DNA of 64,000 nt from Marsupella aquatica (lineage: Eukaryota; Plantae; Marchantiophyta). The DNA lies in assembly GCA_973895155.1 (NCBI GenBank), contig OZ316893.1:16150645-16214644 (forward strand), given 5' to 3'. A program made the translations under genes and the position numbers. The notes under the pieces are model-generated. The model saw only the letters and a program-made list of their open reading frames with translations, ran no database searches and was not told where the DNA came from. Of the stretch, positions 11,073 to 42,301 are shown one piece after another. The first letter of the stretch is position 1. Each line of letters opens with the position of its first letter.

Positions 11073-11082
11073 CTCCCCCTTG
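11073..11082 (-). promoter_or_regulatory. Polypurine tract (AAGGGGGAG) of copy A
   Basis: ctcccccttg directly inside the 3' LTR. Confidence 0.9.
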
Positions 11083-16190: not shown

Positions 16191-16535
16191 TATTCGGGAT
16201 GTCAGTTGATTTAAGAACTTTGGTGAAGATTGAATCGAGTGAAGTATCTCGATTGTACAATTGACCGGTTGGAAGCTTGTATATGGAGCTGAGGGAGCTT
16301 TCAATCATGCCAATAAAGTATTAGTCCTTTGGACTCTCGATATGCTGGTCCCGAATTGATGCTCTATGTGAAATTTCGTGTTTTGTAAAAAAATTCAACT
16401 CTGAGGCAAAAGAATGGAGACCAAGAAAAAAAAACGGTTATGGCAGTTTCTAAAAAAAAATGCCACTTTACGAGCATTCTCCTCGTGTAAAACTCGATTG
16501 CATCTGCTTGAAAAAAAATGATTTTAGAGACTGGC

Positions 16536-16549
16536 TCGTGCTGATAACG
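16536..16549 (-). promoter_or_regulatory. Primer binding site CGTTATCAGCACGA, half-tRNA-Ile type
   Basis: Abuts the 5' LTR; complementary to the anticodon arm of plant tRNA-Ile(AAU/IAU) as recalled, not to a CCA 3' end. Confidence 0.8.
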
Positions 16550-16746
16550 TGTTGTAATAGACAACTAAAGGAACGCTCAAAGATACTCCAACAAGATAGA
16601 TCCATTACTATTGATGAGGGGATATATATATCCCCTTGGTTACATGGTAGGCAAATGCCCTTATACTGGTCCTATGGTTAGGAGTTCTCATACTATGGTT
16701 AAGGGTTCTCGCCCTATGGTTAAGGGGTAAACTAGGGTTTACAACA
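16550..16746 (-). repeat. 5' LTR of copy A (197 bp)
   Basis: Identical to 10876-11072; followed on the minus strand by the PBS. Confidence 0.97.
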
Positions 16747-21005: not shown

Positions 21006-23762
21006 CTAAGTGGGGTTGGCCGAATAAGGCAGTGCCACCAGGCCGGGAATTGGGTCCCCCAAAGCATATTCAACCATCTCCAATTGAGTCAACATTGTAT
21101 TCAACTTTGAGAATAAACTTTTAACATTCCCAACCATCCTGGCATCTTGAAGACAAAGTTCAAAAAGGCTTGGGCCACGGCCCTTCCTCCCGTGGGTCGT
21201 GTAGTTGACAAGGGCACCAATTTGATTTGATGCATGGGTTGCATCCGTTATACAAGATTGCACTATTCCAATCTTTGTTGTGGAAGACCATCGGTGCATT
21301 GCGGCATGCACGGATTCTGCCCCGCTATGGTTCAACATCAATGCAGACTTAGTTCTGTTCATGTCCTACACAAAAATCAAAAATAAAAGTATCATAAAAA
21401 ATATGTACATGGATCATCCGGTACATCTACAACATGTCCAACGTGGTCCATCCCTGAGAGGCTCTCCAAGATAACCCATGTGTTTACAAAAGTCGGAGAG
21501 GCTCTCTAACATGTCTAGTTTCTTGTTGGATATCTTTGAGATGACCAACATGTTTCATCTTGGAGAGGCTCTATGAGATGAACCATGTGTTTACAAAACA
21601 AGAGTTGACTTTCTAACATGTCTACCTTCTTGCCCATTTATTTCATCTTGGAGAGGCTCTCCGAGACGACCCATATATTCCATCTTGGAGAGGCTCTCCG
21701 AGATGGCCCACGTGTTCCATCTCGAAGAGGCTCTCTAACATGTCCAAGATGAATCATCTCGGAGGGCCTCTCTGAGATGTAATATTACTAAGAATTAATA
21801 GACTTACCAGCCGAATGTTTCCCCACTAGAAGAACCGCACAATCCACCACAAAAGCCATGTCTCCAGTGACTTGGTTTTTACTTTGATTGCATTCCCATT
21901 TTTCCACCAATCCTTCATCTTCTCAAAAGTCCAAAATGCAAGAACCACATTGACAGCGTCCCTCAATGAATCTAGAAGCTCCTTATGCTCAACTGCTTTG
22001 CCTGGAAGAATGCATTTCTTTGTCATCTTCTCCGCTGATTGCGCCCAGTGAAATGCATCAGATCGCTCCTTTTGAGAATTAACTCTTCCATCCCAGAATG
22101 TGTTTCAAATTGCATTCCACCCAATTGCAGCATTATCAACATAAACCCGCAAAATGTAATATTGTCAAGCCCATTTGCCTTACACACTCGCTTCATGACC
22201 TTCCATGCAGTTTGTAGTGCAGTAGTATCTTCCAAAACTAGCTCACATACAAAAATTGTGCACACACCTCTGTATAGGTGGTCGTATACATGAGTTGACA
22301 TTGTGCACCATTGCTTCTCAGTCATCCGATGCATAACATTAAACATCACCCATGAGTCTTGTAGATCTCCACCAGGCTGCATGCTTCAATTGAGATCAAC
22401 TCCAGACCCTGGACCCTTTACAGTCATCTTGAAAATGTGTGGGCGTTCATCTATATCTAGCTTCTGGTTTGGAAATAGAGTGCTTTGGACAAATGAAACC
22501 ACTGTTTTTTTTAAGATCAAGGATAACTTGGAGGTTGGACGAGGCATGGGTATACTTGCATATGCTCTATATCATAGATCTTACAACTGAACGATCTGAT
22601 AGTATTGCCAATATTTCATTCAGATCTTGCGCTTCCTCAAATCTGACAATCCCAGAACCTTGTCATCAATTACATCCCTTAGAGCTTTAATTGTGTCACT
22701 CTTGATCACAGACGGCATTGCATGAGAATTCTTCTTCAATTTCTCCTCCATCAAGTTATGTAAGAAAGCTTTTTGATCTTTCTTGAGAACAAATTTGGCC
22801 AGATGTGAGTGACTCCCAAGTTGCATAGCAACACATGTCATGTGCTTGTAAATATAATGGTCATGAGAGGTCGGAGTGACGTAGAACATTTTGGTTGGAT
22901 ACTTTGCTATGCACTTAGGAGGCCGATCACAAAAGGCGCAAATGACACTCTTTGTTGGAACTAGTTGTCCAACAGGAAATGAAACCTCATTTCTCCCACC
23001 CCTATCTTGCTGCCATTCTATGGAATTGCGCTCATTCTTGCTTGTAAAATCCGGACAATCTTAATGTGGACATTGCAAAGAGCCCATGCATCTCACATTC
23101 CCAATCTTATACTTGAAGCCTCCCTTGTTCAGCTTGGGTCCAATTTGGGCCCTTGACTCGATGAGCTTGCTTCACAGATAGCAGTCGTTTCTCCGCTCCA
23201 TACCCAAGAAGAAGGCAGCCTTTGTGTGGATACCTGTGAATGGGGGGAGCTCAAAAATGCAATCCCCATCATACCATTTGGGCAGATTCATGACTCGTCG
23301 GGGATAATGCACTTTGAGAATGGAATGGGAAGCCTTTACACATCGCGATGCGCCTTTCCCTTTCAGCATTGCGACAACAACACTTTCAAGAAATTTGGCT
23401 TGCTCTACCTCTGCCGGCCATTCTGAAATCTTCTCTCCAGTTTGAGATTGCAAACCAACTTCAGTAAGAGGAATAGAGCATAGCCTCTGCTGAAGAACGT
23501 ACAAAACTTCACTTTTCAGATGCCACATCCTTTCCTCTCCACTCTCCTCTGAGTTTGCCTCAATCAATGGTAAGACATTGCTGGCCTCAAAGAGTGCCCA
23601 CTCCCCAAACTCAACATCAAACCGATGAGCTAATTCGTTGTTTGGTGTATGCCGAACAACACGATCAGTCACAAGCACAACAACGTCTCCATTGTTTGGA
23701 AACGTGATCCTCACACGACCGCCATGATAACCACTTGGAGAAAGACTAATGTTGAGCACCAT
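21006..23762 (-). pseudogene. MULE-type DDE transposase with N-terminal GCM/WRKY-like zinc finger (decayed, one intron)
   Basis: Fragments CIFELPP; VRCMGSLQCPH.DCP; CAFCDRPPKC...VAMQLGSHSH; WVMFN(D)VMHR..W.TM..HVYD; GFM-DNAAIGWNA (frameshifted); AESVH give a DDE triad. Phase-0 GT-AG intron 21366-21807 joins RL|DM in frame. May extend to ~20360. Confidence 0.72.
21450..21779. repeat. Palindrome array 1 (~7 copies, inside the transposase intron)
   Basis: Repeated catcttggagaggctctccgagatg-type cores, ~37-bp spacing at the end. Confidence 0.9.
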
Positions 23763-24275
23763 GAGAGTTCAAGTGGCATCTACCGAGAGATTCCCCGTTC
23801 ATGTAAGGGATTTTATTGCCTTTCCACGAGTGTCAATTCAGTTTTGTTTCTCAAGAGCATAACTTAATCAGCAAACAATATGTGAAAATTGTTATTGATT
23901 CTTATGACTTTGTTTTGTCAGAGTACCTTATCTTCCAAACAAAGCATAAAAACCGTTATTGCCGCTTCTTTCTTTGTTGAATATGTGAAGATTGTTTTGT
24001 CATTGTACCTTATCGCCCAAACCAAGCGTAAAAACTATTATTGACGCTTCTTTCTTTGTTGAATATGTGAAGATTGTTTTGTCAGAGTACCTTACCGCCC
24101 AGACCAAGCGTAAAAATTGTTACAAATATTCTTCCCCCATTGAATATGTAACAATCCTTCTTGACAATGTACCCTTGTGAGCGTGAAAATTGTTATTGAC
24201 TATTCTTTATCCAGTGACTAAGTTTATTGGACCAACATCCAAGAACCTTTGACAACAAGTTTAGGGTGTCCATTA

Positions 24276-24612
24276 GGCTCTCTGAGATGCCATCTTGCGC
24301 AGGTATGAAGCCTCGACCCATGTTAGAGAGGCTCTCCAAGATGTCATCTTGCGCACGTATGAAGCCTCAACCCATGTTAGAGAGGCTCTCCGAGATGCCA
24401 TCTTGTGCAGGTATGAAGCCTTGACCCATGTTAGAGAGGCTCTCTGAGATGCCATGTTGCGCAAGTATGAAGCCTCGACCCATGTTAGAGAGGCTCTCCG
24501 AGATGCAATCTTGTGCAAGTATGAAGCCTTGACCCATGTTAGAGAGGCTCTCCAAGATGCCATCTTGCACCAAATCTAAGTGAGGACCATGTTAGAGAAG
24601 CTCTTTGAGATG
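24276..24612. repeat. Palindrome array 2 (54-bp tandem unit, ~6 copies)
   Basis: gaagcc...cccatgttagagaggctctccaagatg units start at 24307, 24361, 24415, 24469, 24523. Confidence 0.93.
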
Positions 24613-24654
24613 CCATTTTCAGGTGTGTAGCAAGGATCAGGCCCAATATTTGTC

Positions 24655-25610
24655 AAAGAGCCTCTCCAAAGTTATCACCAACACCTCCTATCCTGAGTTG
24701 TCATCTTAGAGATCCTCTTTGAGGTCTGACCTTGTGTAATATGCCTATGAGAGGCTCTATGAGGCATGGTCGGGATGATTTGTCATCTTGGAGAGGCTCT
24801 CTAACATGGGTCTCGTCATGACATGTCATCTTGGAGAGCCTCTCCAACTTAAGTCCCAACCTTACATGTCATCTCGGAGACGCTCTTTGACATTGGTCTT
24901 GTCATTACATGTCATCTTGGAGAGCCTCTTTGAGGTCTGACCTTGTGTAATATGCCATTTTGGAGAGGCTCTATGAGGCATGACTGGGCTGATTTGTCAT
25001 CTCGGAGAGCCTCTCTAACATGGGTCTTGTCATGACATGTCATCTCGGAGAGCCTCTCCAACTTAAGTCCCGACCTTACATGTCATCTCGGAGAGCCTCT
25101 CTAACATGGGTCTCGTCATGACATGTCATCTCGGAGAGCCTGGCTCTGACTTAATTCCCAACCTTACATGTCATCTCGAAGACGCTCTCTGACATGGGTC
25201 TCGTCATTACTTGTCATCTTGGAGAGCCTCTCCGACTTAAGTCCCGACCTTGCATGTCATCTCAAAGAGCCTCTCTCACATGGGTCCTGACCTGACATGT
25301 CATCTTGGAGATGCCCTTTGACATCGGTCTCGTCATTACATGTCATCTTGGAGAGCCTCTCTAACATGGGTCCTGACTTGACATGTCATCTTGGAGACGC
25401 TCTTTGACATGGGTCTCATCATTACATGTCATCTCGGAGAGCCTCTCTGACATGGGTCCTGACTTGACATGTCATCTTGGAGACGCTCTTTGACATGGGT
25501 CTCATCATTACATGTCATCTTGGAGAGCCTCTTTGACATGGGTCCTAACCTGACATGTCATCTCGGAGACAATCAGGAACATGTCCCAACTTAAGACTGG
25601 CCTAACATGT
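24655..25610. repeat. Palindrome array 3 (~43-bp period, variable spacers, ~20 copies)
   Basis: acatgtcatct(c/t)ggagagcctctc... at 24821, 24864, 24907 and onward, with several alternating spacer types. Confidence 0.93.
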
Positions 25611-27265
25611 CATGTGAGTACTGTATATTTTTGGGAATTAAATCCGATCGTTGAATGATTGTACTCATTAATACCAAGTAATGATAGGAAATCTTATCTG
25701 GTCTGGAATCAATCGTACTAAGGACATTATGGCGTGAAGGGGTAATAATGATGAAAGCATCTGTAGAGGTACTTCAGTGTTGCAACTCTGACATGAGTCA
25801 AATCCAGGCATTCATCAGTTAGGGAGTAGTACGACTACATATAACCCAATAAACTACTAACATGTAAACTTCCTCCCGTGGCCCCTACCACCTGTAATCA
25901 ATGAGTGGCCCCATAGATCTCCCGTTGCTTGGATGGGACTTGACCTGCGTGACGGCGGTAGTGAATATAGTTGTGATGCCCTTACATCTTCCATTGCCTA
26001 ATGATGATGATGACTACATCCAGCCTTGTCCCCTCCGTCTCTCGCCTTTGCTTCTTACATCTACCCTGAACTTATTGCAGCTATCATTTCATTATCTTTT
26101 CCTCATTTGAATTACAATCGAGGCAGAGCAAGTTCAAGTGCGGATGCAATTGTGGATTGAGTGTGCCTTACTTGTTGTGTAATCTTTTTCTCTCCGCACG
26201 TTGTAGATTGAGCTCAGGTGCAATGCGAGTGCGAGTGTGCTGTAGATTTTGCTGAGTTGTGGGCTGTGGGCAGAACTCCTGAATTGCAAATGAGGTTGTG
26301 CGGGTGTAAGTACGGGTGCATTTGTGGATTGAGTTCTCGGTGTGATTGACTGCTGTGAGCTATGGCGGTGTGAGTGCAAGTGCTGTGCAAGTGGTGGAAG
26401 TGATGCAATTGAGTGTTGTGAGCTGTGGGCGGTGCAAGTGCAAGTGTTGTGCGATTGCCAGTGATTGAGTTGTTGGCGGTGCAAGTGCTGTGCAATTGAA
26501 GTTGTGCTCGTGCAATTGAGTAGTTGGTGAGAGCAAAACATTCTGAAAATGATAGGGAAGAGGAAGCAACCCGCTCCCTCTCCTTCATTTTCTGGTTGGC
26601 AGAGAGCACCGCCAGTGGTCGGGAAACTCACACAATGAAGAAGCTAGAGCCGAAGGTTCTGAACTTCAAAAATTTGTCTGCTGAACGTTTGAACAAGGGT
26701 GCTTTTAAAGGGATTGTTGGGGAGTACTTGGTTTCATTTGGAGTTGAACCAAGCGGGAAGCCCAAAGAGCCACCTTGAATTCCACTATGTCGTTTGATGA
26801 CAATGGAGGCAGTTCGGACTCTCCAACAGAGCTCCATCCTCAAGATGAAGAAGGACTTTGTAAAGAAGTTCATGGGTATGTGGACAAGTTTTTGGAATTC
26901 CACATATCAGAGACCAATGTACATAACGCCACCCACTCCATGTCTAAATTTTTTGCGGATTGGGACCCTCTATGGGAACAAGCTAACGCAAAATTTGAGA
27001 TGGAGTGTGATGGCTACAAGGAGTTTCAAGTTTTGAAGGCTAAGATGTTTTGGGTGTTTGATGGAAATCATCGCCTCAATGCATGGAGACAAGTGGTTGG
27101 AGACTATCCTAACGAGCAGAAGTACCACCCTTGCGTGAGATTCTCTCTTCTACAACCTGGAAAACAAGGATTCAGGAAGATTGAGCAGGCAATGCATGGC
27201 CTGAATGCGTAAGTTTTTGCCCCCTTGGTTTTTGGTTGTTCTTGCATTTGTTGTTCTTTTGCACC

Positions 27266-27875
27266 TAGAGAGGCAATGCTATCTCGGAGAGGCTCTCTGA
27301 GATAGAAATAACCTTCCCTTCTTGGAGAGCCTCTTCAAGATATCCATGCCTTCTTGAAGAGCGATGCCTTCTCGGAGAGCCTCTCCAAGATAGAAAGAAC
27401 CTTCCCTTCTTGAAGAGCCTCTCCGAGATATCCATACCTTCTTGAAGAGCGATGCCTTCTTGGAGAGCCTCTTTGAGATAGAAAGAACCTTCCCTTCTTG
27501 GAGAGCCTCTCTGAGATAACCATGCCTTCTTAGAGAGCCTCTCCAAGATAGAAAGAACCTTCCCTTCTCGAAGAGCCTCTCCGAGATATCCATACCTTCT
27601 TGAAGAGCGATGCCTTCTTGGAGAGCCTCTTTGAGATAGAAAGAACCTTCCCTTCTCGGAGAGCTTCTCTGAGATATCCATGCCTTCTTGAAGAGCAATG
27701 CTTTCTCGGAGAGCCTCTCCAAGATAGAAAGAACTTTCCCTTCTCGGAGAGCCTCTCCAAGATATCACTGCCTCCTTGAAGAGCGATGCCTTCTCGGAGA
27801 GCCTCTCCAAGATAGGGAGACCCTCCCCTTCTTGGAGAGCCTCTCCAAGATAGGAAGCTTCTCCAAGATGTCATG
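27266..27875. repeat. Palindrome array 4 (38+50-bp higher-order repeat, inside an intron)
   Basis: Alternating gatagaaagaaccttccc and gatatccatgccttcttgaagagc spacers around ggagagcctctcc cores. Confidence 0.93.
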
Positions 27876-30047
27876 AAGATGTTAGTTCATCTTGTAGAGA
27901 TATGTCCAACCTGAAATTTTTTGTACATAGCCTTTGACGCTAATATTTGTCGCTTCTTTTACGTAGGATAAGCGCAAACGTTGTGCAAACATCTTGGTTG
28001 ACCGATGCAGACAGGGTGAAGAAGTTGTTGATGACACCATTGGAGGAGTATCAGACATTGCTTCATCCGGATGATTATGCTAGATTCTTAGCAGCGAGAA
28101 ACCATGGGCATGGAAAGACATGGTACAACAAGTGCATGACAAAGGATGTTGCTATGTACATCATGTCGTGGAATAATATTGAAGACGGGAGGATTTGTCT
28201 TGCGAAGGAGATGGCAGCCAATGCAGCAATTGGCCACACCTGGAGTTCGGAGAAGTTCCAGAAGGAAACTGCACTCATGACGAGTGAAGCTTGTAGGTCT
28301 TGGGAGGGCAAAATGCAAAAGTTTGCTCAGATTGTCAATCCAGCAAATGGAGAGGAATTTTTGGAGATAGTCGAGGAGCTGCACCAATTGCAGAGTCAAC
28401 AAAAAGATCGGCCACAAGTGCAAGTGGGGTTGGATAGAGTTAAATTATTTGCAAGTGTGGTCATGCCTGCTGATTGTTGAAACAGGTTACTCCGGGTTCA
28501 TTTCTCAATTGCGGAGGAGAAGAAGTGACACCACCATCCAGATGTATATGGTGATTCAGTAGTGAGAGCTTGGTTGCTAGTGTGGTCAATGTGGTGTTAC
28601 ATTGCCCATGTTGGCAATTTGATTATGTCAGAGTTTGCCGAGAGTGCATATGATTCTGGTGAGTGGCAGAATATCAATGGAAGCAAAGACAAGTTTGTTG
28701 AGTTCCACACCAAAATGTACAAGCAATTTGTACAGACTTGGTCCTATGAGGAGGGCAAGGAGATGTGGAATCCAGCAAAGCAAAGCAAAGATCTGTGGAG
28801 GAAGTGTGCAAAGAGGTGTGTGGTCCGATATTTACCTCATCAAGAGAGCATTGGAGCCTCTACTTTCAAAGTGTTATCAAGTGCTCTGACTGCATGGATG
28901 ACGGAGAAAGGCTCTCTATCAATGTATCCAACAGATGGGCTGAAGCCAGCAGCATGAGTCTTTTCATACTGGGAGAGACAAAATTGTCCATGGTTCATGG
29001 AGTTCATTGATTGGAATGAGTTCATTACGCCCAAAGAGAAGGATGCCACCAACCTCCTAAAGGAGAGGAAACTACCAGACAACCTTTTTGCGCCTTCAGA
29101 GTTGGCAGATCTTGCGCATTCGGCTAAGGCTGCATTGGAGTTGGAAGCCATTTTGCCTCTTGGAGAGCCAGAGTATGATGGAAAGGATGGTTCAGGGGAA
29201 GAAAGATAAGGAATCAAAAGACACCACCTCAGAACAAGGCACTCTTGGTAAGGATACACCCTGGCTTTCATTTTGCATTGTGCATCTGACCTATGTTGGA
29301 GAGCCTCTCCAAGATAGTATCATTGTAAAATGTATACTAAAGTCCTTAGTTTGTTCTGCAGAAAAAAGTAAAGAAAAGTTTGGAACCCCAGAGTCTACCT
29401 CAAGCAAACGTCGTCCAATGGATGAGAAGATGGAGGAGCAGAAGGAGACCAGGGACAATGGAGAGGAGGATGAGAAAGCAAGTGGGGACAATGGAGAGGA
29501 GGATGAGATGGCCACCCAGGGACAATGTAGAGGGGCATGAGGAGGAGGAGGAGGAGGCTAACCTTTCAACCCCAAGCGGGACCCCGAGCAAACCACAAAT
29601 CTTTGGGTAAGCCAACTAGTTGGCCAAAGAAGAAAGCTGAGAAGAGAATAGAAGAGCCTACAAATAAGCCAGTTTCAACAGAAGCCCCGCTTCTTTCGGA
29701 GGATGATCTTTGCAAAATTCTTGGAGTACCTCGGCCCTCTCATGCTATTACATTTGCCCTCCAATTTTGCCATCAAAAGAGCATATGACCTTACTAGAGT
29801 GTTCTTCTTGGCTGAAGGACAAATATCAGCCAACCACAGGAAAGTTGCCTCTCCCTCCATTCATGAGAAAATTCCAGGACTGGTGTAAAAAATTGAAGTT
29901 GGTTGGCTTGCAAAAACAAGGTTGGATAGTTGATGGTGTACCTAAGGGCCATGGTTTTGATATGATCTTTGTTCAGCTAGGGACAAATTATTGCCTAGCA
30001 CACGCTGAAAAGAATGTTCCGGTGTGGAATAGATTTTGGCTCAGTGA

Positions 30048-30450
30048 TGTTGGGTATTTACTCTTACGTCTAGGTTAGGTATGACGTGGTTGGTACAACT
30101 ACGTGGTTAGGTACTACTACATGATTAGGTACAACTATGTGGTTAGGTACAACTACGTGATTAGGTACAACTATGTGGTTAGATACAACTAAGTTGCACA
30201 CTATATCATAAGAGGCATGTGTGCTTGGAGAGGTAGAACCAAGGCTCATTGTTATGGAGCCACTTGAGAGATAGGGAGAGCTTACACCGTGGAGACTCGG
30301 TATAGCCGACGGGCTTAGAGTTCAGTAAAGCTCTCTTGTGTGTTCCCGTGGACGTAGCCTCAAGGAGGTGAACCACGTATCTCTTGTGTCGACTATTGTG
30401 CGTTGGATGGTTCATGGGCTTGCCGTTGCGATCGTCGTCTATGCTCAACA
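30048..30450 (+). repeat. 5' LTR of copy C with 18-bp tandem repeats
   Basis: Units resembling ggttaggtacaactacgt; homologous to 36123-36543. Confidence 0.95.
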
Positions 30451-30452
30451 AT

Positions 30453-30464
30453 TGGTATCAAAGC
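30453..30464 (+). promoter_or_regulatory. PBS for initiator tRNA-Met (one mismatch)
   Basis: tggtatcaaagc versus canonical TGGTATCAGAGC, 2 nt after the 5' LTR. Confidence 0.9.
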
Positions 30465-31605
30465 ATGCTTGGGAGGTGACGTGTGTTCGTGACGGGATTT
30501 CATGACGGTTTTTCCAGCGTTGAGTGTTGGTGGATTTTCCAGAGTTCCATCGCATAGAACTTGGAGTTTATGGGCTCAACGGATAGATCAGGGCAAGAGC
30601 TTTCTAACGGTGTGAAGAAATCGTTGAACGGAGCTCGTGGTGCAAAGAGATCTAAGTTTTTGTCGTTCTGGATTTTGTGAAGAAAGTTGGCAATCGACTC
30701 GGAGGGAGAAGCGTCAAGTGTTTTGACTCAACGGAGAGATTGAGGCAAGACGATTGTTTTTGAGTCCGGGATTGGCTCTTTGATGCAAAGAGGAAGGCCA
30801 AGCAAAATCAATTACCTTGTTGGACTTGGTGACGGCACCAAGTGCAATTGATCAACATTCGTTGTTGACAAGGTACCGTTTTTTTCTCTTTGAAAAACTG
30901 ATTCGAAATTGGCTATGGCAATTGAGAGAAATCTGTCATCTTTACCAATTTTTTTCTCCCTCGTTCTTTCCTCGTTTTGGGTGCTTCTTATATCGATCTT
31001 CATCGCCTCGGAGTCTAGTTTCCAAATCTGAAATCAGATCTTGATTTCGTCAAAACCCGAGTGAGATATCTTGCGTTTGGTGTCGAGGGGTACATTCTGC
31101 CGTGTGTATTTTCTGCGCGCGCGACCAGATTTCGACGACGAAGGGTGGTAGGGGGGTTTTGGGGGTTCGAGGACACATGTCAACCCCTCGATTGTTCTTC
31201 CAAAATTCCCACAGGGCCTGTACAAGGGTCATAGAATATTCCAAAAAACCAGAGAGCTATTTTTTGACCGTCCGACAAAGATTTCATCCGCCGAACGGTA
31301 ACTTTTTTGGTTATTTTTCGGCAAGGTCGTAGCCATTGAAATTGGCAACGCAGTGCACCAATCACATCGCAATTCCGACAACGGGTTGTACTTGGTATTT
31401 CGGTTATTCCCTGAGGTGGTCAAAACGGGGGAGTTTCCCAAGGTTTTACCCACCTCGACCGAAATTTGAATAACTTTTCCGTCAAATTTCGATTTTGATT
31501 TCGGTTTTCAGTATTGGACTCCTAGCTTTGTGGGCTACACGGCGGTGTTGAGTTTTGAGTTTTTTGAGAAGTTGTGAAAAACAACATTTTTTGTGATTTT
31601 CTCAT

Positions 31606-34600
31606 ATGAGTGATTCGGAGGAGTTTTTTGAAGACGTGGAACTTGAAGCACGAGGATCACCGCGGAGGTTTCAGGGGCAGAGAGAGGAGCAGGAGGAAGA
31701 GCACGTGACACCGATACCATCACCGGTGCGGCGTGTGGTGGAGGAAGCAGTACTACTACCGGAGCTCACGGTAGTGCCAAAGAAGAAGATAGGGACTTTC
31801 AAGCTTGGGGGACCCAAGTATGAAGTGACAAAGTATGATGGGCGCTCTGACTACTTGCTATGGGAGAAGCAGGTGAAGGGAGTGCTTTATGCGTCAGGGA
31901 TGGGCCAACTGCTGAGCCCTCGTGAAGACGATGTTGATGAGAAACAATGGGACCGCATGCAGGAGCAGGGAGTGTGGTGTGTTACACTCTATCTCATGCC
32001 TCCCATCATCAAGTAGTTGGGTGCACATAAGGATTGCATGTCCTTGTTTGCGGAATTGCAGAGCAAGTATCACCGCAAGGAGTTGTCGAACCGGCTCTAC
32101 ACTTCCTACAAACTGATGAGTTTCAGGATGAAGGAATCCGGTACGAAGTTGCAAGACCATGTGGATGCTTTCAACGACATGGTCGTTGACTTGGAAAACC
32201 TTGGGGAGACTTTGAATGATGAGACGAAGGCTCTACAGCTTCTTAGTTCATTGCCTCCATCTTACCAGTCTCTATCACGAGTGTTGTTGCATCGTGATAG
32301 GGATACCATTTCATACAATGACGTGGTAAGTTCTCTGCTTAGTGATGATCTTCAGCAGAAGATGCACATCACGTCACAACCTTCATCATCTGGTGCTGCC
32401 CTCAATGTTAACCGTGGGAGGAGTATGCAGCGACCAACTGGGGACCGTAGAACCCAGTTTAGATCTAAATCCAGATCTAAGTCCAAGGGTAAATCCCCTC
32501 AGAGGAGGCAGGTGACATGTTGGAAGTGCAACCAAGTTGGACACTTCAAGCGAGACTGTAAGGGAAAGGCAGCGGAAACTTCATCGGCAAATGTGGCTAG
32601 GGCTGATGGAGAAGTTGATTTACTCAATGATGAGTATGTTTTATGAAGCCGGGGGTATGCCCTGTGCACGTCATCTAGGAGAGCAGATGATGTGTGGATT
32701 CTTGATTGTGCTTGCTCTTTTCATATTTGTTACATTCGTGAGTTTTTCAGTTCTTACTCTGTTTCAAACGGTTCATTCTGATGGGAAATGATCACTCCTG
32801 TCAAATTGAGGGAATTGGGTCTGTGAAGATTCAAATGTTTGATGGCGCTGTGCGCACAGTGTCCGGAGTCAGGTATGTACCTGGCATGCGTAAAAATCTG
32901 ATTTCACTCGGTGTGTTGGATTCAAATGGTCATCAATGGAGCGTTATTGATGGTGAACTTCAAGTCAGGTTGGGAGAGACAATGATTTTGAAGGGGAGTA
33001 GACAAAAGAATTTGTATGTGTTATAGGGCAATACTGTATGTGGAGAGGCCAATGTAACCAAGTCTCACGAGGAGATGACTCAACTCTGGCATTCACGGCT
33101 AGGCCACATGAGTGAGAAGGGTTTGGCTATCTTACGGAAGAATGGACTCATTTCTGATTTGCAATTTTGTAAATTAGAGTTTTATGAGCATTGCATTCTT
33201 GGAAAGCAGCATCGTCGTGCTTTTGGTGTTGGAACTCATCGTTCCAAAGCGGTTCTTGAGTACATACATAATGACGTGTGGGGTCCATCCCCGACTCCCT
33301 CACACTCTGGAAAGTTGTACTATGTATCATTTATTGATGATTACTCAAGATTTGTGTGGATTTATTTCATGATGCATAAGTCTGATGTCTTGTCCATTTT
33401 TAAGAAGTGGAAGGCCCAGGTGGAGAATCAGACTGGAAACACGATCAAGTGTTTGGATACAAGGGTGAAGAGTCTGAGGTCAGACAACGGCAGGGAGTAC
33501 ACTTCAATGGAATTTGAAGAGTACTGTTCAGAACAGGGGATAACTCGCCATCTCACCACAGTTTATACTCCGCAGCAGAAGGGTGTTGCTGAGAGGCTCA
33601 ATCGGACACTGTTGGAGCGGTCACGGAGTATGTTGAGCCAATCAGGTTTACCACAAGAATTTTGGGCAGAAACTGTCAATACCGCAGCTTATTTGGTAAA
33701 TCTTTCTCCTTCTAGTGCTATCAATTTCAAAACGCCGTTTGAGATGCGCTATAAGCGGCAAGCAGACTATCATGGCTTGGTAGTTTTTGGAAGTGATGCA
33801 TATGCTCTCACACCGAAGCAGAATAGGACCAAGTTGGATCCTACCTCCAGGAAATGTGTTTTTCTTGGGTACCAGAGTGGTGTGAAAGCCTATAGGCTAT
33901 GGGATCCTATTGCCTGTAAGCTCGTTGTCAGTAGGGATGTTTCCTTCAATGAATCCAGATTATTAAAGGAGGGGGAGCATACTCAGGTCTCCCGTACTGA
34001 CAAAGGAAAATCTCCTATCCCGGATCTCGTTGAGGGGGAGATTGGTTATGAGGTGCATGACCGGAAAGAAGGAGTTGCTCCAATTATGGAGCTGGTTCCT
34101 GTGCCAGAGGAACCAGAGGAGTTTGTTGATGCTGGTGAGCAGCAAGTGGATGCTGTTGAGCTTCAAATTGTACCAGCACACGCAGATCAATCGGAGTCAT
34201 CGGCTAGAAGAACATCTGGTCACACTGTACGCGCTCCACCAAGGTATGGACAGTGGGTTGATTCATCTCAACTGCAAGAGGATGATTTTACAGCTGATGA
34301 TGAGGGTGATGCGTTAATTTTGGAAGAAGGGGAACCTTCTTCATTTCATGAGGCAAGTGCTTCAAAGGAGAAGCAGAAGTGGACTGCATCAATGCAAACG
34401 GAGATGCAGTCACTAAAGGACAATAAAACTTGGGAGCTTGTTAAGCTGCCTAAGGGTCAGCAAGTGGTGGACAGCAAGTGGTGGACAGCAAGTGGATTTA
34501 CAAGCTGAAGGATAATTCCATAGGAGGTGGATCGAAGGTCTACAAGGCTAGATTGGTAGCAAAGGGATTCACACAAGAGAAAGGTGTGGATTACAATGAG

Positions 34601-35932
34601 GTCTTCTCACCAGTTGCTAAGTACTCTACAATACGACTATTGTGTGTACTTGTTGTAATGTTTGGTCTGTTGCTAGATCAGATGGATGTTGTCACAGCTT
34701 TCCTCTATGGCACATTGGAAGAGGTGATCTTCATGAGACAACCGCTAGGTTTTGTGAAGAGAGGACAGGAGGAATTGGTTTGCAGATTGCTGAAATCCTT
34801 GTATGGGTTGAAGCAGTCATCAAGACAGTGGAACAAGTGGTTTGACGATTGGATTCGGTCACAAGGTTTTCACAGAAGTGTATTTGACCCTTGTGTGTAT
34901 TTGAAACCGGTAAAGAATGTTGTCTTTGGGTTCATTGTTTTAGTACTTTATGTGGATAATATGCTAATTGCAGCCAAGGATAGGTCTGAGATTGTTAAGC
35001 TCAAGGCACTGCTTAGTGCAGAGTTTAAGATGAAAGACTTAGGGCCAGCTAAGAGGATTTTGGGTATGGAGATCACTAGGAACTTGGAGGCTGGCAAGCT
35101 ATGGTTGACGCAGAGCAGTTATGCGAGGAAGGTAATTGCAAGGTTCAACATGGGGAATAGCAAGCCAGTAAGTACCCCGTTGGCTCCACACTTCAAGTTA
35201 TCATCAGCGTTCTGTCCTATGGATGACATAGAGAAGGGGTTGATGTCAAAGGTTCCGTATGACAAGGCAGTGGGGAGTCTCATGTATTTGATGACTTGCA
35301 CTAGACCTGATCTTGCCATGGCTATGGGCAAGGTGAGCAGGTACATGTCAAATCCAGGGAAGGTACACTGGGAAGCAATGAAGTGGATTATCAGGTACTT
35401 GAAGGGTACCGTGGATCATGGTCTTTTATTTGATGCGAATGCAAAGAATGCTAAATCATTGATTGGCTATGTTGATTCTGACTATGGACAAGATTTGGAC
35501 TGAAGGAGATCAACAACAGGATACGTGTTCACACTTGGCGGTGGATGCATAAGTTGGAGGTCTACTTTGCAGAAGTGTATTGCTCAGTCTACTATAGAAG
35601 CGGAGTATGTTGCAGCTGCGGAAGCAGCAAAGGAAGCGATTTGGTTGAATAGACTTATCACTGAAATGGGATTGCCACAGGGGAATGTGAAGCTCCATTG
35701 TGATAGTCAAAGTGCGCTCCACCTTGCTGTGAACCAAGTGATGGACAGCAGAGTGAAGCACATTGACGTTAGGCACCATTTTATCAGGCAGGCTGTGTCT
35801 GATAATTTGTTTGAGCTAGTCAAGATTGATGGTAAACTCAACCCGGTTGACGTATTTACCAAAGTGATTCCTTTGGAGAGTTTCTCTAGACACCGTGACG
35901 TATTGCAGGTTTTGCAATTGCATCACAAGTAG
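31606..35932 (+). pseudogene. Gag-Pol of copia C with multiple stops and frameshifts
   Basis: Gag (KYDGRSDYLLW, CWKCNQVGH), protease WILDCACSFH, integrase (LWHSRLGH, DVWGP, LRSDNG), RT (YGLKQ; YVDN instead of YVDD), RNase H. Stops at 32014, 32644, 33024, 35501; frameshifts near 32780 and 34470. Confidence 0.93.
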
Positions 35933-36122
35933 AGTTTTCTTAACATTCATTGTAATTACTGATATATGCTCTTCCTCATTCCTATGTATTAGGCTACGGC
36001 TTAGTTCTGGTTTGCTCTAGTTAGAGAGGGAAACCGGTTTGGTTTTTGTCCAGAACTTCCCGCTGAGGGATCATATACATTGGCAGTATTACTCTCCCCT
36101 AGACCAGAGTCAAGGGGAAGAT

Positions 36123-36543
36123 TGTTGGGTATTTACTCTTACGTCTAGGTTAGGTATGACGTGGTTGGTACAACAACGTGGGTTGGTACAACTACGTGGT
36201 TAGGTACAATTACGTGATTAGGTACAACTATGTGGTTAGGTACAACTACGTGATTAGGTACAACTATGTGGTTAGGTACAACTAAGTTGCACACTATATC
36301 ATAAGAGGCATGTGTGCTTGGAGAGGTAGAACCAAGGCTCATTGTTATGGAGCCACTTGAGAGATAGGGAGAGCTTACACTGTGGAGACTCGGTATAGCC
36401 GACGGGCTTAGAGTTCAGTAAAGCTCTCTTGTGTGTTCCCGTGGACGTAGCCTCAAGGAGGTGAACCACGTATCTCTTGTGTCGACTATTGTGCGTTGGA
36501 TGGTTCATGGGCTTGCCGTTGCGATCGTCATCTATGCTCAACA
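36123..36543 (+). repeat. 3' LTR of copy C
   Basis: One 18-bp unit longer than the 5' LTR, plus several substitutions. Confidence 0.95.
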
Positions 36544-36785
36544 AGTGACCTAGAAATGGCAACGACATTGGTAGACTCTCTACTCACAAACGACGGTTTC
36601 TTGTGCATCGTGCACAGTGGTTCATTTGCCCACACAGGCTCAATCTTTGAGTACCTTCACATTGACTGGGCTGAGAAATGGATCACATTGACTCATTCAC
36701 CATTTGAAATGATATGCCTTGCTACATGGCGTCAAGCAAAAAAGCTATAAGTTCACAAATATTTTGGCATTTATCAGTAGAAGTC

Positions 36786-37192
36786 ATTTTGAAGAGGCTC
36801 TCCAAGATAGTTCAAAAATGTGTCCGCAATTACCATCTCAGAGACGCGCTCCTAGATAGGTAAGATTGATCATGGAGAGGATCTTTGAGATAGGTAGGAT
36901 CAATCTCAAAGAGCCTATCCCAAATCCTACATATCTCGGAGAGCCTCTCCGAGATAGGGAAGATCCATCTTGGAGAACCTCTCTAAGATAGGTAGCATGG
37001 ATCTTGGAGAGCCTCTATGAGATAGGTACCTTGGATCTTGGAGAATTTATCTGAGATAGGTAGGATCCATCTTGAAGAGCCTCTCTGAAATAGGGAAGAT
37101 CCATCTTGGAGAGCCTCTCTAAGATAGGTAGCATGAATCTTGGAGAACTTCTTTGACATAGGTAGGATCCATCTCGGAGAGCCTCTCCAACA
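36786..37192. repeat. Palindrome array 5 (~38-bp period, inside a probable intron)
   Basis: gatagg...gatccatct(c/t)ggagagcctctc units. Confidence 0.9.
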
Positions 37193-38364
37193 TAAGTAGG
37201 ACCGATGTTAGATAAGTAGAGCAATTAGTGTTGCTAACAAGTGCAAATCTATTTTGCATGATGTGTCAGGCTCAATATCTGCATTTGGATATACAACAGG
37301 GGTGACCCTCCCAAAGGTACATATGAAGCCAATTGTTGGTGACCTGTGCCCAACAACGAGCAATGCTCTATCCAATTTTACAAAGGAAGATGATGCAGTG
37401 AGAGACAAATTGGCGGGTACCTTATCGCTTGCAATATTGCAATGCATCATAGAGCACATCACCAGTCCTGGCGATATAATATTTTCTTGGAATGTCCACT
37501 TTGGTGCTATCTACAAACCTACCAATAATTGTGGGCGACTAGTATTTGGGATGGAAGCGCATGACTACTTTGGTGACTCAGCAGCTTCAGTGGTGTGAAA
37601 ACTCCTTTCAACGCAGCAGGGCAATGAGACCAAGGCGAAGGCCAAGGAGGAGACTAAGAAGGAGGAGGCCAAGGAGACTACAAAGCCTAACTTAGGGTAG
37701 AAGAAGCTAGTCCTTGAGTCTGATTCAGAGGAGGATGTCGCAAAAGGCAAGGGTGGGGATGCTTAGGATTGTGAGTAAACATTGAATCCAAGAACCCATT
37801 TGTTGTAGGTAGTTTGCAATTTATATTGTGCCATGGTGAGGATCAATAAAAATGTGTAAGTTCCACATTATTATGGCATTACCCTAAATTGTCTACTTAA
37901 CCAATAGGCAGTTCACTACAGGAACATTGAGTTTGAACAATGGCCAGCACACATCGGACAAGAACAAAGTCCATGAAGCATGGGAGGAAGCATCAAAAAC
38001 TTTCTCTCCAGAAAGATTTTGCCTTCCAACCTATGCAGAAGGGAGTGTTGATTCACGTCCCTTCAAACGGCTCAAGGGTGTAGCTGAGAAGTACACAAAG
38101 AGGCAAAAATCTAGATTTGTAGATGATAGAGCAGTAGAGGTAGACTACAATGAAAGTGAGTGTCAGCAGTGGTAGTGACGAGGTAGCTCACCCTTCTTTT
38201 GTGATACATAGCTCAGATGAAGATGATGCCTAATGCCATGTTGTTCAATCCTATGTAGCACGTGGTGGGAATACCCGGATACTTGGGTCATTTATTGAAG
38301 TAGTCTACTTTCAGGAATTTTCCAACATAGTATCCACATGTCTATCCATAGAGCTCCCAGGTGA

Positions 38365-38630
38365 GGAAGTAATGTCCAACTTTGTAGAGTACAAGTTGAC
38401 CAGGGCGTCAATGAGATGCTTGTCTCAAGGAAGAACATCAGCTCAATGGCTACATTCAGATATCATCGATGCATACTTGGCCTTGTTGTAGTTTAGGGGG
38501 AGATCAAGAGACTATCCAAAGTGTGCATTTTTCATCATAGCATTCTACACGTTGCTTTCATCGCCTGTATACTGTTTTGCCAATTGCTCGATGGACCAAA
38601 ACATAAAACATATTTTGACATGGAGGTTAA
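38365..38630 (+). pseudogene. Ulp1/SENP (peptidase C48) N-terminal fragment, truncated
   Basis: Manual translation: KLTRASMRCLSQGRTSAQWLHSDIIDAYLALL*FRGRSRDYPKCAFFIIAFYTLL, matching the C48 WLNDEIIN.Y..LL...KC.FF..FY pattern. Confidence 0.75.
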
Positions 38631-39309
38631 CACTGTGATGCCTAGCCAGGAATCACTAGGCCAGTTAAAGTGGTAAAATCGGGAGTGTACCCTCAAAACA
38701 CATTAGTATAGTAACAAAACAAGGAAAATATAAACAATTAAGGGTGACTATGGAACCCAAGCCGAGGCCGGAAGTAAGGGCGCCACGGCAAGGAACGCAA
38801 TTAGGGTTAGGGCACGCTAAGTGCCGACAGCAATAGGTAATCAATGGGAAGATCGACCATGGAGGGGGGGTAAGGCAGGGCAACCCAGGAGTAACGGCTC
38901 ACATTCGCACCTCAAGCAAGCAGAGTGCAAGTAGAAGCCAACGACTGTGAGCTGCGGAGGAGAAGGCGGGAGGGGCATAAGCAGCTACCGAGCAACGCCA
39001 GAGAAGGGAATGAGCAACATCAATCAAGCAACACATTTTTGGGGATGCCTGTTTGAACGGGCAAGTGAGTATGTCAGGACTTACAAAGAGGAAGAATCAG
39101 AAAGAGCAGCCCACGAGCGATAGGAACTTGCTTGGCTGTGGGAACTGCAGAAGACAACCTTCTTAGGAGGAGAACTCATCAAGGCTGAATTCTTGTGGAC
39201 ACCTACTGGCGACAAGCTTGACGACCTTCTAATTTGAGACAACAAAATCGTCGGCATCCGGCAAGCCATCAACAATTGCAACGACGAACATTGGGACCGG
39301 AAAGGTTGC

Positions 39310-42301
39310 ATGGCGTCGTGGACAAAAGCCACAGTGTTGGGAGAATCTTCAGGTGCGGCTGAAATGAAGAGGAAGATGGCCAACAATGAAGAAAACACAC
39401 TGGCCAAGAGGATGAGGTCGGCAGTATCAAGGAGGCCGGCCGAACAGGGGAGGCAAAGAGAGGAGGAACCCAAGGAACAAGAAGTCGACCCAGTCAATGC
39501 CATCCCTACCCGAGACGACACCTGGAAGGGATGGGCGGCAATGATACCACTGGCGGTACAAGTACAACTTTTATGAGAAGAGGATGCATGCTTTACAGCC
39601 ATGCAGACCAAGAAGTACCAAGGCTTCATGACCGGATCAGGCTTGGGGACCTTTGTAAGACTACCGTGGCTGAAGAGGGAGGTGCCAAAGTTGGACTTAC
39701 TGGAATTCGTGGGATCATGGGACCACAAGACCAGCTCCACAAAGATCTATGGGAGGGACTTCTATCTCACCTCCAACGTGATTGCCAAAGTGTTTGGCTT
39801 GTCGATGGGCAGCAAAGCTAAGGTAGAAACCCGGAAGAACTTGTCGGACAAGGAGTTTAGATCATTCCCCGGGCCGTCAACAAAGAATGGCTTCCTTCGG
39901 AGCACCTGCACCAACCCGCATATTGGAGAAATGATTGATTTCTTGCGGGTAACAATGCATTGCAACTGGCCAAGGCCAGAGATCGGCAAGGCACAGGTTT
40001 ACTTGGCAGAGAGGCCAGACCCAAGCCGGGATAACAATGGGTACCTCCTCAACCAACTCAGAAAGATATTGAAGGAGGAACAGCAAGTGATTAGCCAAGG
40101 GAGCGTATCCCGGCTTGGTTATCACATGTTGTTGTTATGCCGGTATGCCCAAAGTCAAATCTTTGCCCCGATCCTTCCCCTCCAGGCTAGAGCGCCAAAA
40201 GAGGGATCAGACCCGAGGCCGACAGAAAAGCAGCCCAATCCGCCCGGCAGCCCCACGATAGCTCAGGTCTTCCAACAGGTACCAGAAGCCGGGCCAATGC
40301 AACAACCGGCCATGCACAGCCTCCTGCACATACTTAACAAGGAGAAGGCGGCTCTAGCACCAGAGGCAGCAGCAGCGGGCACCAGAAGAACCGCTAGAGG
40401 AGAACCCATGGCCGGGGCCGTAAAAAGAAGCAGGCCAAAAACAAGCCAGGGGTGCGGATGTATGTAGAAGCCTCTAGTTCTGAAAAAAAGTGCGGAAATC
40501 AGGTGCGGGAGCCGGAGGGGCAAGCCGCACGCATATATAATCCTCGGCAGGAGGCCGGGTTTACGGCTAGTCCTAGAGAGGACAAGCAGGCACCAAGACA
40601 ACCGGAGGGCGGGAAATACGTGGAGGAATACCACAAGGACTTGGGTTACGGGTCGGATCGCTCAATACCAGGGTGTGGACCTACGGCCGTTTTATCCCCA
40701 GACTACCAAGAGTGGTGCGTGGGGATCCACAACAGTAGGGGAGCCCGGAGTCTCCCCCACCGGACGTACCTCCACCAATTTTTGATGGAAGACAACAGGC
40801 TGATCACAAGTTGCAGCAGCAATTTAGTGACCTGGAGGAAGCCACCCTGGCCAAGGAAAAGGACTTGCCTGGCGGTGGACGGCCGGAGGACATTCAGCAA
40901 CTGGTAGGGACTCAAGCCGCGCCTTTGCCCATGTTTGAGGAGATACGGAGGGCGGCTTGGGAAGGAAGGCCATGTTGGGAGATGTCGACATCTCCTAACC
41001 ACTCCACCTATGCACGTTCCAGAGCCCTGGAGTATGAGAGGATGTGCGGGCTACCCGCCCTTGACATCTTTGGGTTAGAATTGGAGACAGGGCCTTTCGT
41101 CCAAAAAGAGATGTTGGAGAAAAGCCGATTGGAGGACGCACTGGCCCTGGAGAGGATGAAGGAGGAAGTCATCCGACGGCTAAGAGAGAAGGAAGCATGA
41201 AATAAATATCATGTAGGGGCAACTAGCCCAGACTCAGGAAGACTTGGCCGAAGCCCTCAAGGAGAAGGAGAAGTGGAAGCAGGAGGTGAAGAAGGCAGAG
41301 GCAGCTCACATAATGGCCTACAACAGAGCCATGACCGAGGCCCAGAGGAAGGAGCGGGCACTGAAGGATGAGATCAAAGAATGCCGCAAGGCCCTTCATC
41401 AAAAACAGGCCGAACTTGATGAGACCTACGGGGGCATCAACAAGTTGAAAGGAGACCTGGAGGACCTGTCGGCCAACTTTCAAGCCGAGCTGCGGAAGAA
41501 GGATGATATGCTCGATCAAACCTACGACAATATGAATAAGATTGAGTTTGATGTCGTCCATGAGCTCAATGCAGAGCTGAAGGCAACCCAGGAGGAGAGG
41601 GCGGCCTTATGGAAGGAGTTGGATGAGAACCTAGCAGAGTTGGAGCAAGCCCGTGGGATTTAGACCAAACCCTGGTGGAGTTGGAGGAAGCCACCCAGAA
41701 GATGGAGAATCTGCAGAGACGGGCGGACAACCAAACCGAGCGGTTGAGGAAGCAGTCTGAGGAGCTAAATCAGCTGACCGCAACAAATGGACCCTTGATA
41801 GCGGCAACAGGGTTGCAGGGCATGGTATTAACCAAGCAACAAGCCGTGGTACCCTTACCCTTGCCAGAAGTAAGCCACAAGGGGAAGGCCGTTTGGGTGG
41901 GGAAGGACAAAAAGCGGAAGCCTTCTGGGTTAGGAAGCCACACCGTTCGCCACTGTGGCTGAGGTAGAGAGCATGGCACCAGCCTTATGAGAGGTTGTGC
42001 CGTCAAGGAAGCATTCCGGGAGGTAGGCCAAGAAGACCGATTGGGGGAGGCCATGACTAGCACCAACCCAAGGGTGCCAACCATGGATCAACATCAACCG
42101 CAACCTTGGGAGGACGAGAGAACCCAACTCATAGAACAAGCCTATGAGGAGGACCACTACGGCAAGGTAGTCGATGTCGGGATGGAGAGAACAGAAGCTG
42201 CAAGGGTGGGACCCCCACAGATAGGTCGGGGTAATGGAAGCCGGACAAGTAGAAGCCGATGTAGCCAAGGCCAAAGTAGTGGTGGGGCCTGGACATACTG
42301 A
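39310..42301 (+). pseudogene. Decayed retroelement accessory ORF (plant-transposon-protein-like N-terminus + coiled coil)
   Basis: Colinear fragments with stops; LGTFVRLPW...EFVGSW...LTSNVIAKVFGL resembles Athila/Tat accessory proteins; long E/K-rich heptad region. Confidence 0.5.

Follow-up and report, generated by a model that had tools for sequence, protein, structure and literature searches.

Palindrome arrays in the non-coding DNA of a decayed Mutator-like transposon as candidate sites for an element-encoded ParB-like protein

Introduction

What reads a palindrome that recurs, in array after array, within a single locus of a plant genome? The locus lies in a 64 kb stretch of Marsupella aquatica DNA, referred to here as the window. 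A preliminary description held that the palindrome sits in introns and avoids exons, that its orientation is tied to each transcription unit, and that it could act as DNA sites or as pre-mRNA hairpins and small-RNA sources.

Results and Discussion

The exact core GAGAG-N-CTCTC occurs 29 times in the 64 kb, always within 21456-37177 and always with G or C at its centre. The full unit is an odd-length, 23-bp palindrome, ATCTYRGAGAG-S-CTCTCYRAGAT, with 58 copies between 21450 and 37193 when up to 4 mismatches are allowed; at the same threshold, sequences simulated from the window with a first-order Markov model (ten runs) averaged 0.1 matches. Even though the scan left the centre free, 56 of 57 copies carry G or C there. 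The copies are arranged as follows.

Array 1, in the transposase intron 21366-21807 (-): 7 copies
Array 2, 24266..24616 (-): 6 copies in 54-bp tandem units, between the two genes
Array 3, 24781..25570 (+): 17 copies in 43-bp units (86-bp higher order)
Array 4, in the accessory-gene intron 27209-27966 (+): 14 copies at 38/50-bp spacing
Single copy, 29293-29315, in the intron 29248-29361 (+)
Array 5, in the probable intron 36747-37269 (+): 12 copies in 34-bp units

Intergenic DNA (24261-25600) holds 24 copies, and the remainder lie in four introns, one of them probable. At up to 4 mismatches there are no copies in exons (6808 bp), in a nested copia element (6501 bp) or in the rest of the window (45795 bp). 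The preliminary placement therefore stands for exon avoidance and for 34 of the 58 copies, and does not extend to the 24 (arrays 2 and 3 and a junction copy) that are intergenic. One half-site was seen in coding DNA, at 29157.

Every array arose by tandem amplification in place, around a conserved core, and has a spacer length of its own (34, 37, 38/50, 43 or 54 bp). Array 3 is an inverted relative of array 2, with arms of 40-47 nt that are 80-90% complementary. Helical phasing of the sites was considered and rejected, as copy spacing keeps no helical phase. Copies decay first in CG and then in CHG context, with no signal of repair. A neutral origin, in which a palindrome-prone seed is spread by template switching and slippage into the tolerant non-coding DNA of the element, would fit this mode of amplification and decay; flips of the centre between G and C fit template switching, and a 60-bp perfect hairpin in a relative (both described below) is a sign of fold-back copying. 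However, the 45.8 kb of flanking DNA and the nested copia are both free of copies, the core persists although the spacers wholly differ, and unrelated palindromes recur in one intron across families; we regard a neutral origin as unlikely. Confinement to the non-coding DNA of one element, with a core that outlasts its spacers, fits the earlier reading of the palindromes as DNA sites.

The carrier of the palindromes is a decayed Mutator-like transposon with two head-to-head genes. The transposase is encoded on the minus strand.

21808..23725 (-): transposase exon 1, start approximate; 53-60% to the intact homolog P0003 by tblastn
21366..21807 (-): transposase intron, GT..AG, phase 0; donor and acceptor identical in sequence to those of the relative L001
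20366..21365 (-): transposase exon 2, which carries the E (of GAES) that completes the catalytic triad; matched by P0024

In an alignment of 21 sequences, exon 1 contains a Cys/His-rich region, the first two catalytic D positions and a DxxH motif. It is decayed by stops and frameshifts; the first D reads N, and a frameshift lies near the second. The triad D..D..(C/D)xxH is conserved in homologs, and splicing restores the E in register. CxxH is described as a trait of MULE and hAT transposases (PMC5225508). The top three Atlas clusters are all MULE (PF10551, scores 0.92-0.94), and direct Pfam scans gave no MULE match. At the donor, 16 of 20 homologs read on with V (GTN) and then lose similarity. 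The WG-to-ES spacing is 20 in the window, where one codon is lost, 21 in L001, and 19 and 21 in the uninterrupted homologs P0061 and P0065, respectively. Further transposase exon(s) and the left terminus of the element were not located, and comparison of 16.75-20.5 kb with 37.6-64 kb revealed no convincing inverted repeat, the right side being cut by other DNA. Mutator elements characteristically end in such repeats and are flanked by a target-site duplication of 8-10 bp. The transposase alignment found no relatives in viral or prokaryote contigs and one among 94 candidate stretches in metagenomes.

The second gene, which we term the accessory gene, is encoded on the plus strand.

26637..27208 (+): exon with a DGNHR motif; homolog P0158, 47%; start approximate, somewhat upstream
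27209..27966 (+): intron, GT..AG, phase 2 on both sides, frame restored across the junction; P0158 ends at the donor
27967..29247 (+): exon, helical region of no known family; P0001 71%, P0002 48%
29248..29361 (+): intron of 114 nt, GT..AG, phase 1 on both sides
29362..30047 (+): exon, acidic linker and start of the weakly methyltransferase-like region
30048..36543 (+): nested Ty1/copia LTR retrotransposon; LTRs 30048-30450 and 36123-36543, 94% alike
36549..36746 (+): exon after the copia element
36747..37269 (+): probable intron outside homolog coverage; donor reads AT, acceptor and phase approximate
37270..37770 (+): exon, degenerate region weakly resembling the SAM-binding part of beta-class amino-methyltransferases, then a charged tail
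38300..38570 (+): remnant truncated by other DNA; taken to resemble the first part of a Ulp1 (SUMO protease) domain

The copia insertion splits the gene with a 5-bp target duplication (AGTGA), and the host gene frame continues across it. At the intron 29248-29361, P0001 stops two codons past the matching donor and P0002 diverges there. That the introns are genuine features of the genes, as first proposed, is supported by the identical splice sites of L001 and by homologs that stop or diverge at matching donors (three introns).

The N-terminus of the accessory product is weakly ParB-like. The DGNHR exon resembles ParB/Srx proteins of the DGQHR-like type, with a TIGR03187 match at E=0.0047 (below the cut-off, covering ~50 residues), a DGQHR profile score of 14.2 bits (0 of 500 shuffles) and an Atlas lead of ParB_N at 0.89 in 11% of members. 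The C-terminus is weakly methyltransferase-like, aligning collinearly to a profile built from 28 bacterial PF01555 proteins at a weak 1.4 bits (3 of 500 shuffles), with one phage methylase match at E=9; its catalytic and SAM signature motifs are degenerate in this decayed copy. Single ORF pieces gave no significant match to the methyltransferase profile, Pfam, NCBIfam, PHROGs and PADLOC gave no match to the region, and its fold model (pLDDT 43) was uninformative. The helical exon likewise had no Pfam match, and its AlphaFold model (pLDDT 47) no fold match. No Pfam or PDB match was seen for the remnant at 38300..38570, and across the element sequence searches of Pfam, NCBIfam, PHROGs, PADLOC and PDB put a name on none of its proteins. 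Promoter prediction between the two genes with a bacterial model, which is not apt for a eukaryote, gave hits at chance level.

Mapping all palindromes with strand bears out the earlier tally of G and C centres and the switch between strands, which falls near 24.6-24.8 kb. On the plus strand, the centres are 6 G and 1 C in array 1, 6 G in array 2, C in the junction copy, 10 C and 7 G in array 3, 13 C and 1 G in array 4, C in the single copy, and 8 C, 3 G and 1 T in array 5. Read on the sense strand, this amounts to 44 C, 12 G and 1 T, with a C majority in all six clusters; the C fraction of array 3 (10/17) becomes 10/12 when both centre-flanking bases are intact. The first copy is G-type in arrays 1, 3, 4 and 5. 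The idea that G-centre copies are inverted units was rejected. Since the best C-centre partner of each G-centre copy (12/12) lies in the same, not the inverted, orientation, the centre flips without flipping of the unit. Because the copies are tandem amplifications, we count four intronic clusters and one inverted intergenic pair as independent. By hand calculation, agreement of polarity by chance would then be expected about 1 time in 8 with four clusters and about 1 in 32 with the intergenic pair, the switch point in that pair having been picked post hoc. In all, the polarity depends on 4-6 independent clusters. The polarity is thus real as a count and weak as evidence, and is the weakest part of the original claim. 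An orientation tied to the transcription unit is at best weakly supported, given the few independent clusters, the centre flips within arrays and the lack of polarity in the palindrome of L001.

Polarity that follows transcription would be expected if the palindromes act through the sense-strand RNA, as hairpins that alter splicing or give rise to small RNAs. In keeping with this, C predominates on the inferred sense strand in all six clusters, a 10-bp stem of -14.2 kcal/mol can form in each unit, and G-U-type departures exceed A-C ones (66 vs 35), mostly from array 3. The arms themselves argue otherwise: 423 Watson-Crick pairs are seen between them against a shuffle mean of 436, and three variable pairs have no compensatory link (Fisher p 0.06-0.18, with the trend opposite). 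Arms without co-variation are therefore evidence against hairpin selection. Moreover, the sense strand folds better in 4 of 7 regions and the antisense strand in 3 of 7, C and G centres are equal in energy, Rfam returned no matches, 24 copies are intergenic, and the L001 palindrome has no polarity. With no arm co-variation, no consistent folding advantage of the sense strand and a centre base that is neutral to energy, the suggestion of pre-mRNA hairpins or small-RNA sources is disfavoured, and we judge an RNA-level role very unlikely.

The relative L001, ~50% identical, is the sole one represented by DNA (2 kb, ending short of the accessory gene). Its transposase intron is orthologous to that of the window and holds three copies of a different, even-length palindrome, TATTGCTAGCGCC|GGCGCTAGCAATA, which has no centre and no polarity; one copy is the centre of the 60-bp perfect hairpin. 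The L001 palindrome is also encoded twice, with 0 mismatches, in the intron read-through of P0070 (0 matches in shuffled proteins), and read-through of the transposase intron in P0003/P0007 encodes the palindrome of the window with 1 mismatch. Because a distant relative carries a different palindrome in the orthologous intron, family-specific docking sites are likely, and the pattern suggests a VANDAL-like turnover of motifs between families. The palindrome of the window has no match in viral contigs and one in prokaryote genomes, and that of L001 has none in viral contigs. The prokaryote match, a lone copy in a Lachnospiraceae MAG, was set aside as chance, there being no transposase homology there.

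Docking sites might instead be read by the transposase, which would then activate transcription of its own family and leave the accessory gene no role as reader. There is precedent in the AtMu1 transposase of Arabidopsis, which by itself binds its family and activates it (bioRxiv 10.64898/2026.08.24.746577). The transposase of the present element has a Cys/His-rich N-terminal region, and L001 ties the change of motif to transposase divergence only. On the other hand, AtMu1 binding is at termini, whereas the palindromes here are internal, with 0 copies at the candidate ends. The element also has a ParB-like gene, and ParB proteins bind palindromes. We consider the transposase quite unlikely to be the reader.

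The reading we favour, and hold to be probable, is that the arrays are double-stranded DNA sites for an element-encoded protein, most likely the ParB-like, weakly methyltransferase-like accessory product, with own-family recognition and anti-silencing as the predicted roles. A dimer would read the two half-sites, and for this reason the central G:C pair could work either way round. Tolerance of arrays in non-coding DNA may explain why the sites gather there, and density would raise occupancy, as for VANC. The binding protein and its motif likely change together from family to family, and the accessory protein would keep recognised family copies active against host silencing. Most of the strand bias at the centre was probably handed down from a small number of founder units; a symmetric DNA site leaves the sense-strand C bias and the G-type first copies unaccounted for.

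A bolder version of this proposal, which we put forward as possible though doubtful, is that Mutator elements of land plants recognise themselves by a bacterial-style ParB/parS system. A ParB-like clamp would load on family-specific palindromes in the introns of both genes and in their shared promoter, spread over the element, and bring in a domain of methyltransferase fold, which would either write 4mC/6mA or block 5mC by the host. Such anti-silencing would have an origin independent from that of VANC; palindrome and protein would co-evolve by family, and the direction of transcription might bias loading.

Comparison with Known Systems

Bacterial ParB-parS and DndB/DGQHR proteins have a GxxR-type nucleotide-binding motif and several palindromic sites near the gene, and both features are seen here. 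The present element differs from ParB-parS in that no ParA and no helix-turn-helix were identified and the accessory gene is eukaryotic and spliced.

In VANDALs, which are Mutator-like, VANC proteins bind family-specific motifs arranged as tandem arrays in introns and between genes (PMC5735166). The likeness extends to the Mutator-like carrier, to dense arrays of one orientation in introns and intergenic DNA, and to motif turnover between families. The VANC motifs are described as 9-nt and non-palindromic, with binding and demethylation shown in Arabidopsis (PMC5735166, PMC10398659), whereas the motif here is a 23-bp palindrome and its role is predicted from sequence. VANC carries DUF1985/DUF287 (PMC5735166); these domains had no Pfam match in the ORFs of the window or in P0001, P0002 or P0158, and homology to VANC was rejected.

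Sola1-1_Ec32 of Ectocarpus is described as having a gene of ~1100 aa, ParB-like plus N4C/N6A methyltransferase, opposite the transposase (PMC12477816). The element studied here likewise has a weakly ParB-like accessory gene on the strand opposite the transposase, and the methyltransferase likeness of its C-terminus is weak; the differences are that the carrier there is Sola, not Mutator, and that the methyltransferase motifs here are degenerate. The main text of the Sola1-1 paper does not mention palindromes (PMC12477816).

In red algae, Plavaka/EnSpm elements are described with PAG3 (ParB-like plus 2OG oxygenase) and PAG2 (N6A methylase plus SET) genes, and homologs are noted in Mutator elements of Chondrus (Petroll et al., bioRxiv 10.1101/2025.02.11.637652). 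The ParB-like PAG3 adjoins inverted-repeat arrays, and its protein is proposed to bind and modify its own element; the same source names VANDALs as the only transposons for which binding and modification of their own sequence have been shown (bioRxiv 10.1101/2025.02.11.637652). PAG3 elements thus share with ours a DNA transposon, a ParB-like accessory gene and tandem inverted-repeat arrays. Here, however, the carrier is Mutator-like and in a plant, the C-terminus looks weakly methyltransferase-like rather than like a 2OG oxygenase, and the arrays are spread across four introns of both genes and intergenic DNA, not only beside the gene. The likeness to PAG3 and Sola1-1 elements is one of domain and array features, as set by their descriptions.

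The pairing of ParB and palindromes has, by these descriptions, already been proposed for red- and brown-algal transposons. In a search of openly accessible literature records, no land-plant Mutator was reported to combine a ParB-like gene with palindromes in introns. What the locus contributes to the known systems is a carrier of Mutator-like type, a plant as host, and a pair of unrelated palindromes that occupy one orthologous intron and allow a direct cross-specificity comparison of proteins and motifs. If the favoured reading is true, such elements would constitute a set of natural sequence-specific epigenetic editors.

Palindromes and the Introns That Hold Them

The palindrome is of odd length and spans 23 bp, ATCTYRGAGAG-S-CTCTCYRAGAT. 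At ≤4 mismatches the window has 58 copies, where ten Markov simulations averaged 0.1. The exact 11-mer GAGAG-N-CTCTC is found 29 times in the window and is confined to 21456–37177.

Palindrome copies by location
21366–21807, intron of the minus-strand transposase gene (array 1): 7
Intergenic region between both genes: 24 (6 in the 54-bp array 2, 24266..24616; 1 at the junction; 17 in the 43-bp array 3, 24781..25570)
27209–27966, intron of the plus-strand accessory gene (array 4): 14
29248–29361, intron, plus strand: 1
36747–37269, probable intron, plus strand (array 5): 12

The preliminary description had placed the palindromes in introns and not in exons. At ≤4 mismatches, no copies are seen in exons (6808 bp), in the nested copia (6.5 kb) or in the 45.8 kb outside the element; the restriction to introns does not hold, as 24 of the 58 lie outside coding-region introns. 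Decay affects the CG context first, then CHG, and half-site positions are retained in 54, 71 and 92 of 116, compared with 101–116 of 116 for the inner core.

The donor and acceptor of the transposase intron align with those of L001, a metagenome DNA locus with a related transposase. Counted by eye, 16 of the 20 homologs that reach this donor continue with V and then lose similarity, and splicing places the catalytic E 20–21 residues past WG, versus 19 and 21 in the uninterrupted homologs P0061 and P0065. The introns at 27209 and 29248 each have the same phase at both ends, and in the homolog alignment P0158 and P0001 end at their donors. The fourth, probable intron (36747) has an AT donor and an uncertain acceptor, and no homolog covers it. 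The palindrome is absent from the candidate introns 25616–26208 and 37856–37922.

The transposase itself is decayed and Mutator-like, with 53–60% identity to the intact protein P0003. Its best Atlas clusters are MULE (scores 0.92–0.94), with Streptophyta commonest; D..D..(C/D)xxH is kept across homologs, and 413 relatives are found at E ≤ 0.001. Together with the CG-then-CHG decay of the palindromes, the prominence of Streptophyta in the Atlas cluster points to a plant host. Pfam gave no direct MULE call, and a search of the window located no element termini. The palindrome feature is real, and the anatomy of the element is solid.

The window is eukaryotic DNA, rich in repeats that include copia elements. 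One young copia is present twice (10876–16748 and 47305–53178), the copies being 99.8% identical and sharing identical 197-bp LTRs; the former retains a 1471-codon open frame, and the latter is frameshift-split. A relative of the nested copia's LTR, 76% identical, lies at 57042–57310 (minus). The right side of the Mutator-like element is truncated by decayed ORFs at 38570–47300, which are rich in coiled coils and belong to one or more other elements. Upstream of the transposase start, an 82-bp tandem repeat (23910–24116, 2.5 copies) lacks the palindrome and includes a GT donor-like site.

A Different Palindrome in the Orthologous Intron

L001, one of 94 candidates, spans 2 kb and shows no accessory gene within that length; at the amino-acid level it is ∼50% identical to the alignment used as query. 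Its orthologous intron carries three copies of another, even-length palindrome, TATTGCTAGCGCC|GGCGCTAGCAATA, spaced 84 and 90 bp apart. Among 158 proteins scanned, an intron read-through in P0070 encodes the L001 motif twice with 0 mismatches, and the window motif is encoded in the read-throughs of P0003 and P0007; shuffling the proteins three times yielded 0 matches. Intronic palindromes thus characterize the lineage, with the sequence differing by family. This motif swap is a more useful result than polarity.

The middle L001 copy is the center of a 60-bp perfect hairpin with 29-nt arms (L001:1172–1231), a possible trace of fold-back copying. In P0010, P0103, P0110 and P0120, repeated transposase-linker peptides are compatible with variants of the window motif of the form GAGAC-S-NTCTC. 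Relatives may therefore not keep the motif out of exons entirely, and the sites may lie in coding DNA or an unspliced intron; we treat this as a lead. Within the window, intron-like segments of another element (45800–46182 and 55774–56098) are 76% identical. The former is longer by ∼36 bases, which contain an imperfect GCTAGC/GCGCCGG palindrome with a faint resemblance to the L001 motif; no ungapped match occurs at ≤7 mismatches.

Polarity of the Center Base

A recount of the window copies bears out the earlier tally of center bases: on the inferred sense strand, the 57 copies other than the junction copy comprise 44 C, 12 G and 1 T. C is the majority in six of six clusters, though in array 3 it accounts for 10 of 17. 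The independent units are clusters, with arrays 2 and 3 forming one inverted unit; by hand calculation on the inferred sense strand, the four intronic clusters would agree by chance in ∼1 of 8 cases, and in ∼1 of 32 once the intergenic pair is added. For all 12 G-center copies, the best C-center partner by flanks is same-oriented; therefore, the center changes independently of its unit, and both states are retained. In arrays 1, 3, 4 and 5, the 5′-most sense-strand copy (21756, 24785, 27281 and 36786) is of the G type, and most later copies are C-centered; the first copy in P0003 is probably of the G type too. Orientation tied to each transcription unit, as first proposed, is supported by the C majority and weakened by the few independent clusters, the independently flipping center and the L001 motif, which has no center base. 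The link between polarity and transcription is no more than suggestive.

The same description had offered pre-mRNA hairpins as a role, and the data speak against it. An RNA-level function could draw on G-U departures outnumbering A-C (66 vs 35), an excess mostly due to array 3, but arm pairing is lower than expected (423 Watson–Crick pairs vs a within-array shuffle mean of 436), and the three variable arm pairs show no compensatory change. Predicted folds favor the sense strand in four of seven regions and the antisense in three, hairpin energy is equal for C and G centers, and an Rfam search gave 0 matches. We rank this explanation lowest of those considered.

A Candidate Reader

The plus-strand accessory gene lies head to head with the transposase gene, and its DGNHR motif matches DGQHR/ParB-type proteins (E = 0.0047 against TIGR03187, below the family cut-off; 14.2 bits, 0 of 500 shuffles, against a local five-protein profile). 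The helical region that follows matches no known family. The C-terminus bears a weak, collinear resemblance to beta-class amino-methyltransferases (1.4 bits; 3 of 500 shuffles), with degenerate signature motifs, and its single pieces are not significant against these enzymes. A copia insertion splits the gene in frame, with target duplication AGTGA. A putative Ulp1-like remnant, assigned by its motif, lies 3′ of the gene and has 0 database matches.

On the sequence evidence, we consider it reasonably probable that the palindromes are bound as DNA by a dimer that the element encodes, most probably its ParB-like accessory protein; the sites would have been amplified in non-coding DNA, would turn over between families and would probably serve to counter silencing. 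Neutral, palindrome-driven amplification is an unlikely alternative source of the arrays, and it is slightly more doubtful still that the transposase is their reader.

Comparison with Known Systems

DUF3723, the Atlas neighbor of the ParB-like exon, is reported as Starship cargo (bioRxiv 10.1101/2021.12.13.472469). In VANDAL elements, VANC recognizes and binds motifs particular to each family, which form tandem arrays of one orientation in introns and intergenic DNA (PMC5735166, PMC10398659). Our arrays likewise occupy introns and intergenic DNA; however, VANC domains as described there were not found at this locus. The AtMu1 transposase is described as activating its own family from the termini (bioRxiv 10.64898/2026.08.24.746577). 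The available sections of PMC4738411, bioRxiv 10.1101/2021.02.12.428880 and PMC5225508 have no direct bearing on the locus, and our literature search found no report of a ParB-like gene together with intronic palindromes in a land-plant Mutator. Two further reports describe a ParB-like PAG3 adjoining inverted-repeat arrays in red-algal Plavaka elements (bioRxiv 10.1101/2025.02.11.637652) and a ParB-methyltransferase gene opposite the transposase in Ectocarpus Sola1-1 (PMC12477816); self-binding is an untested proposal in both. We read the present locus as a variant of an arrangement already proposed for other transposons, new in form.
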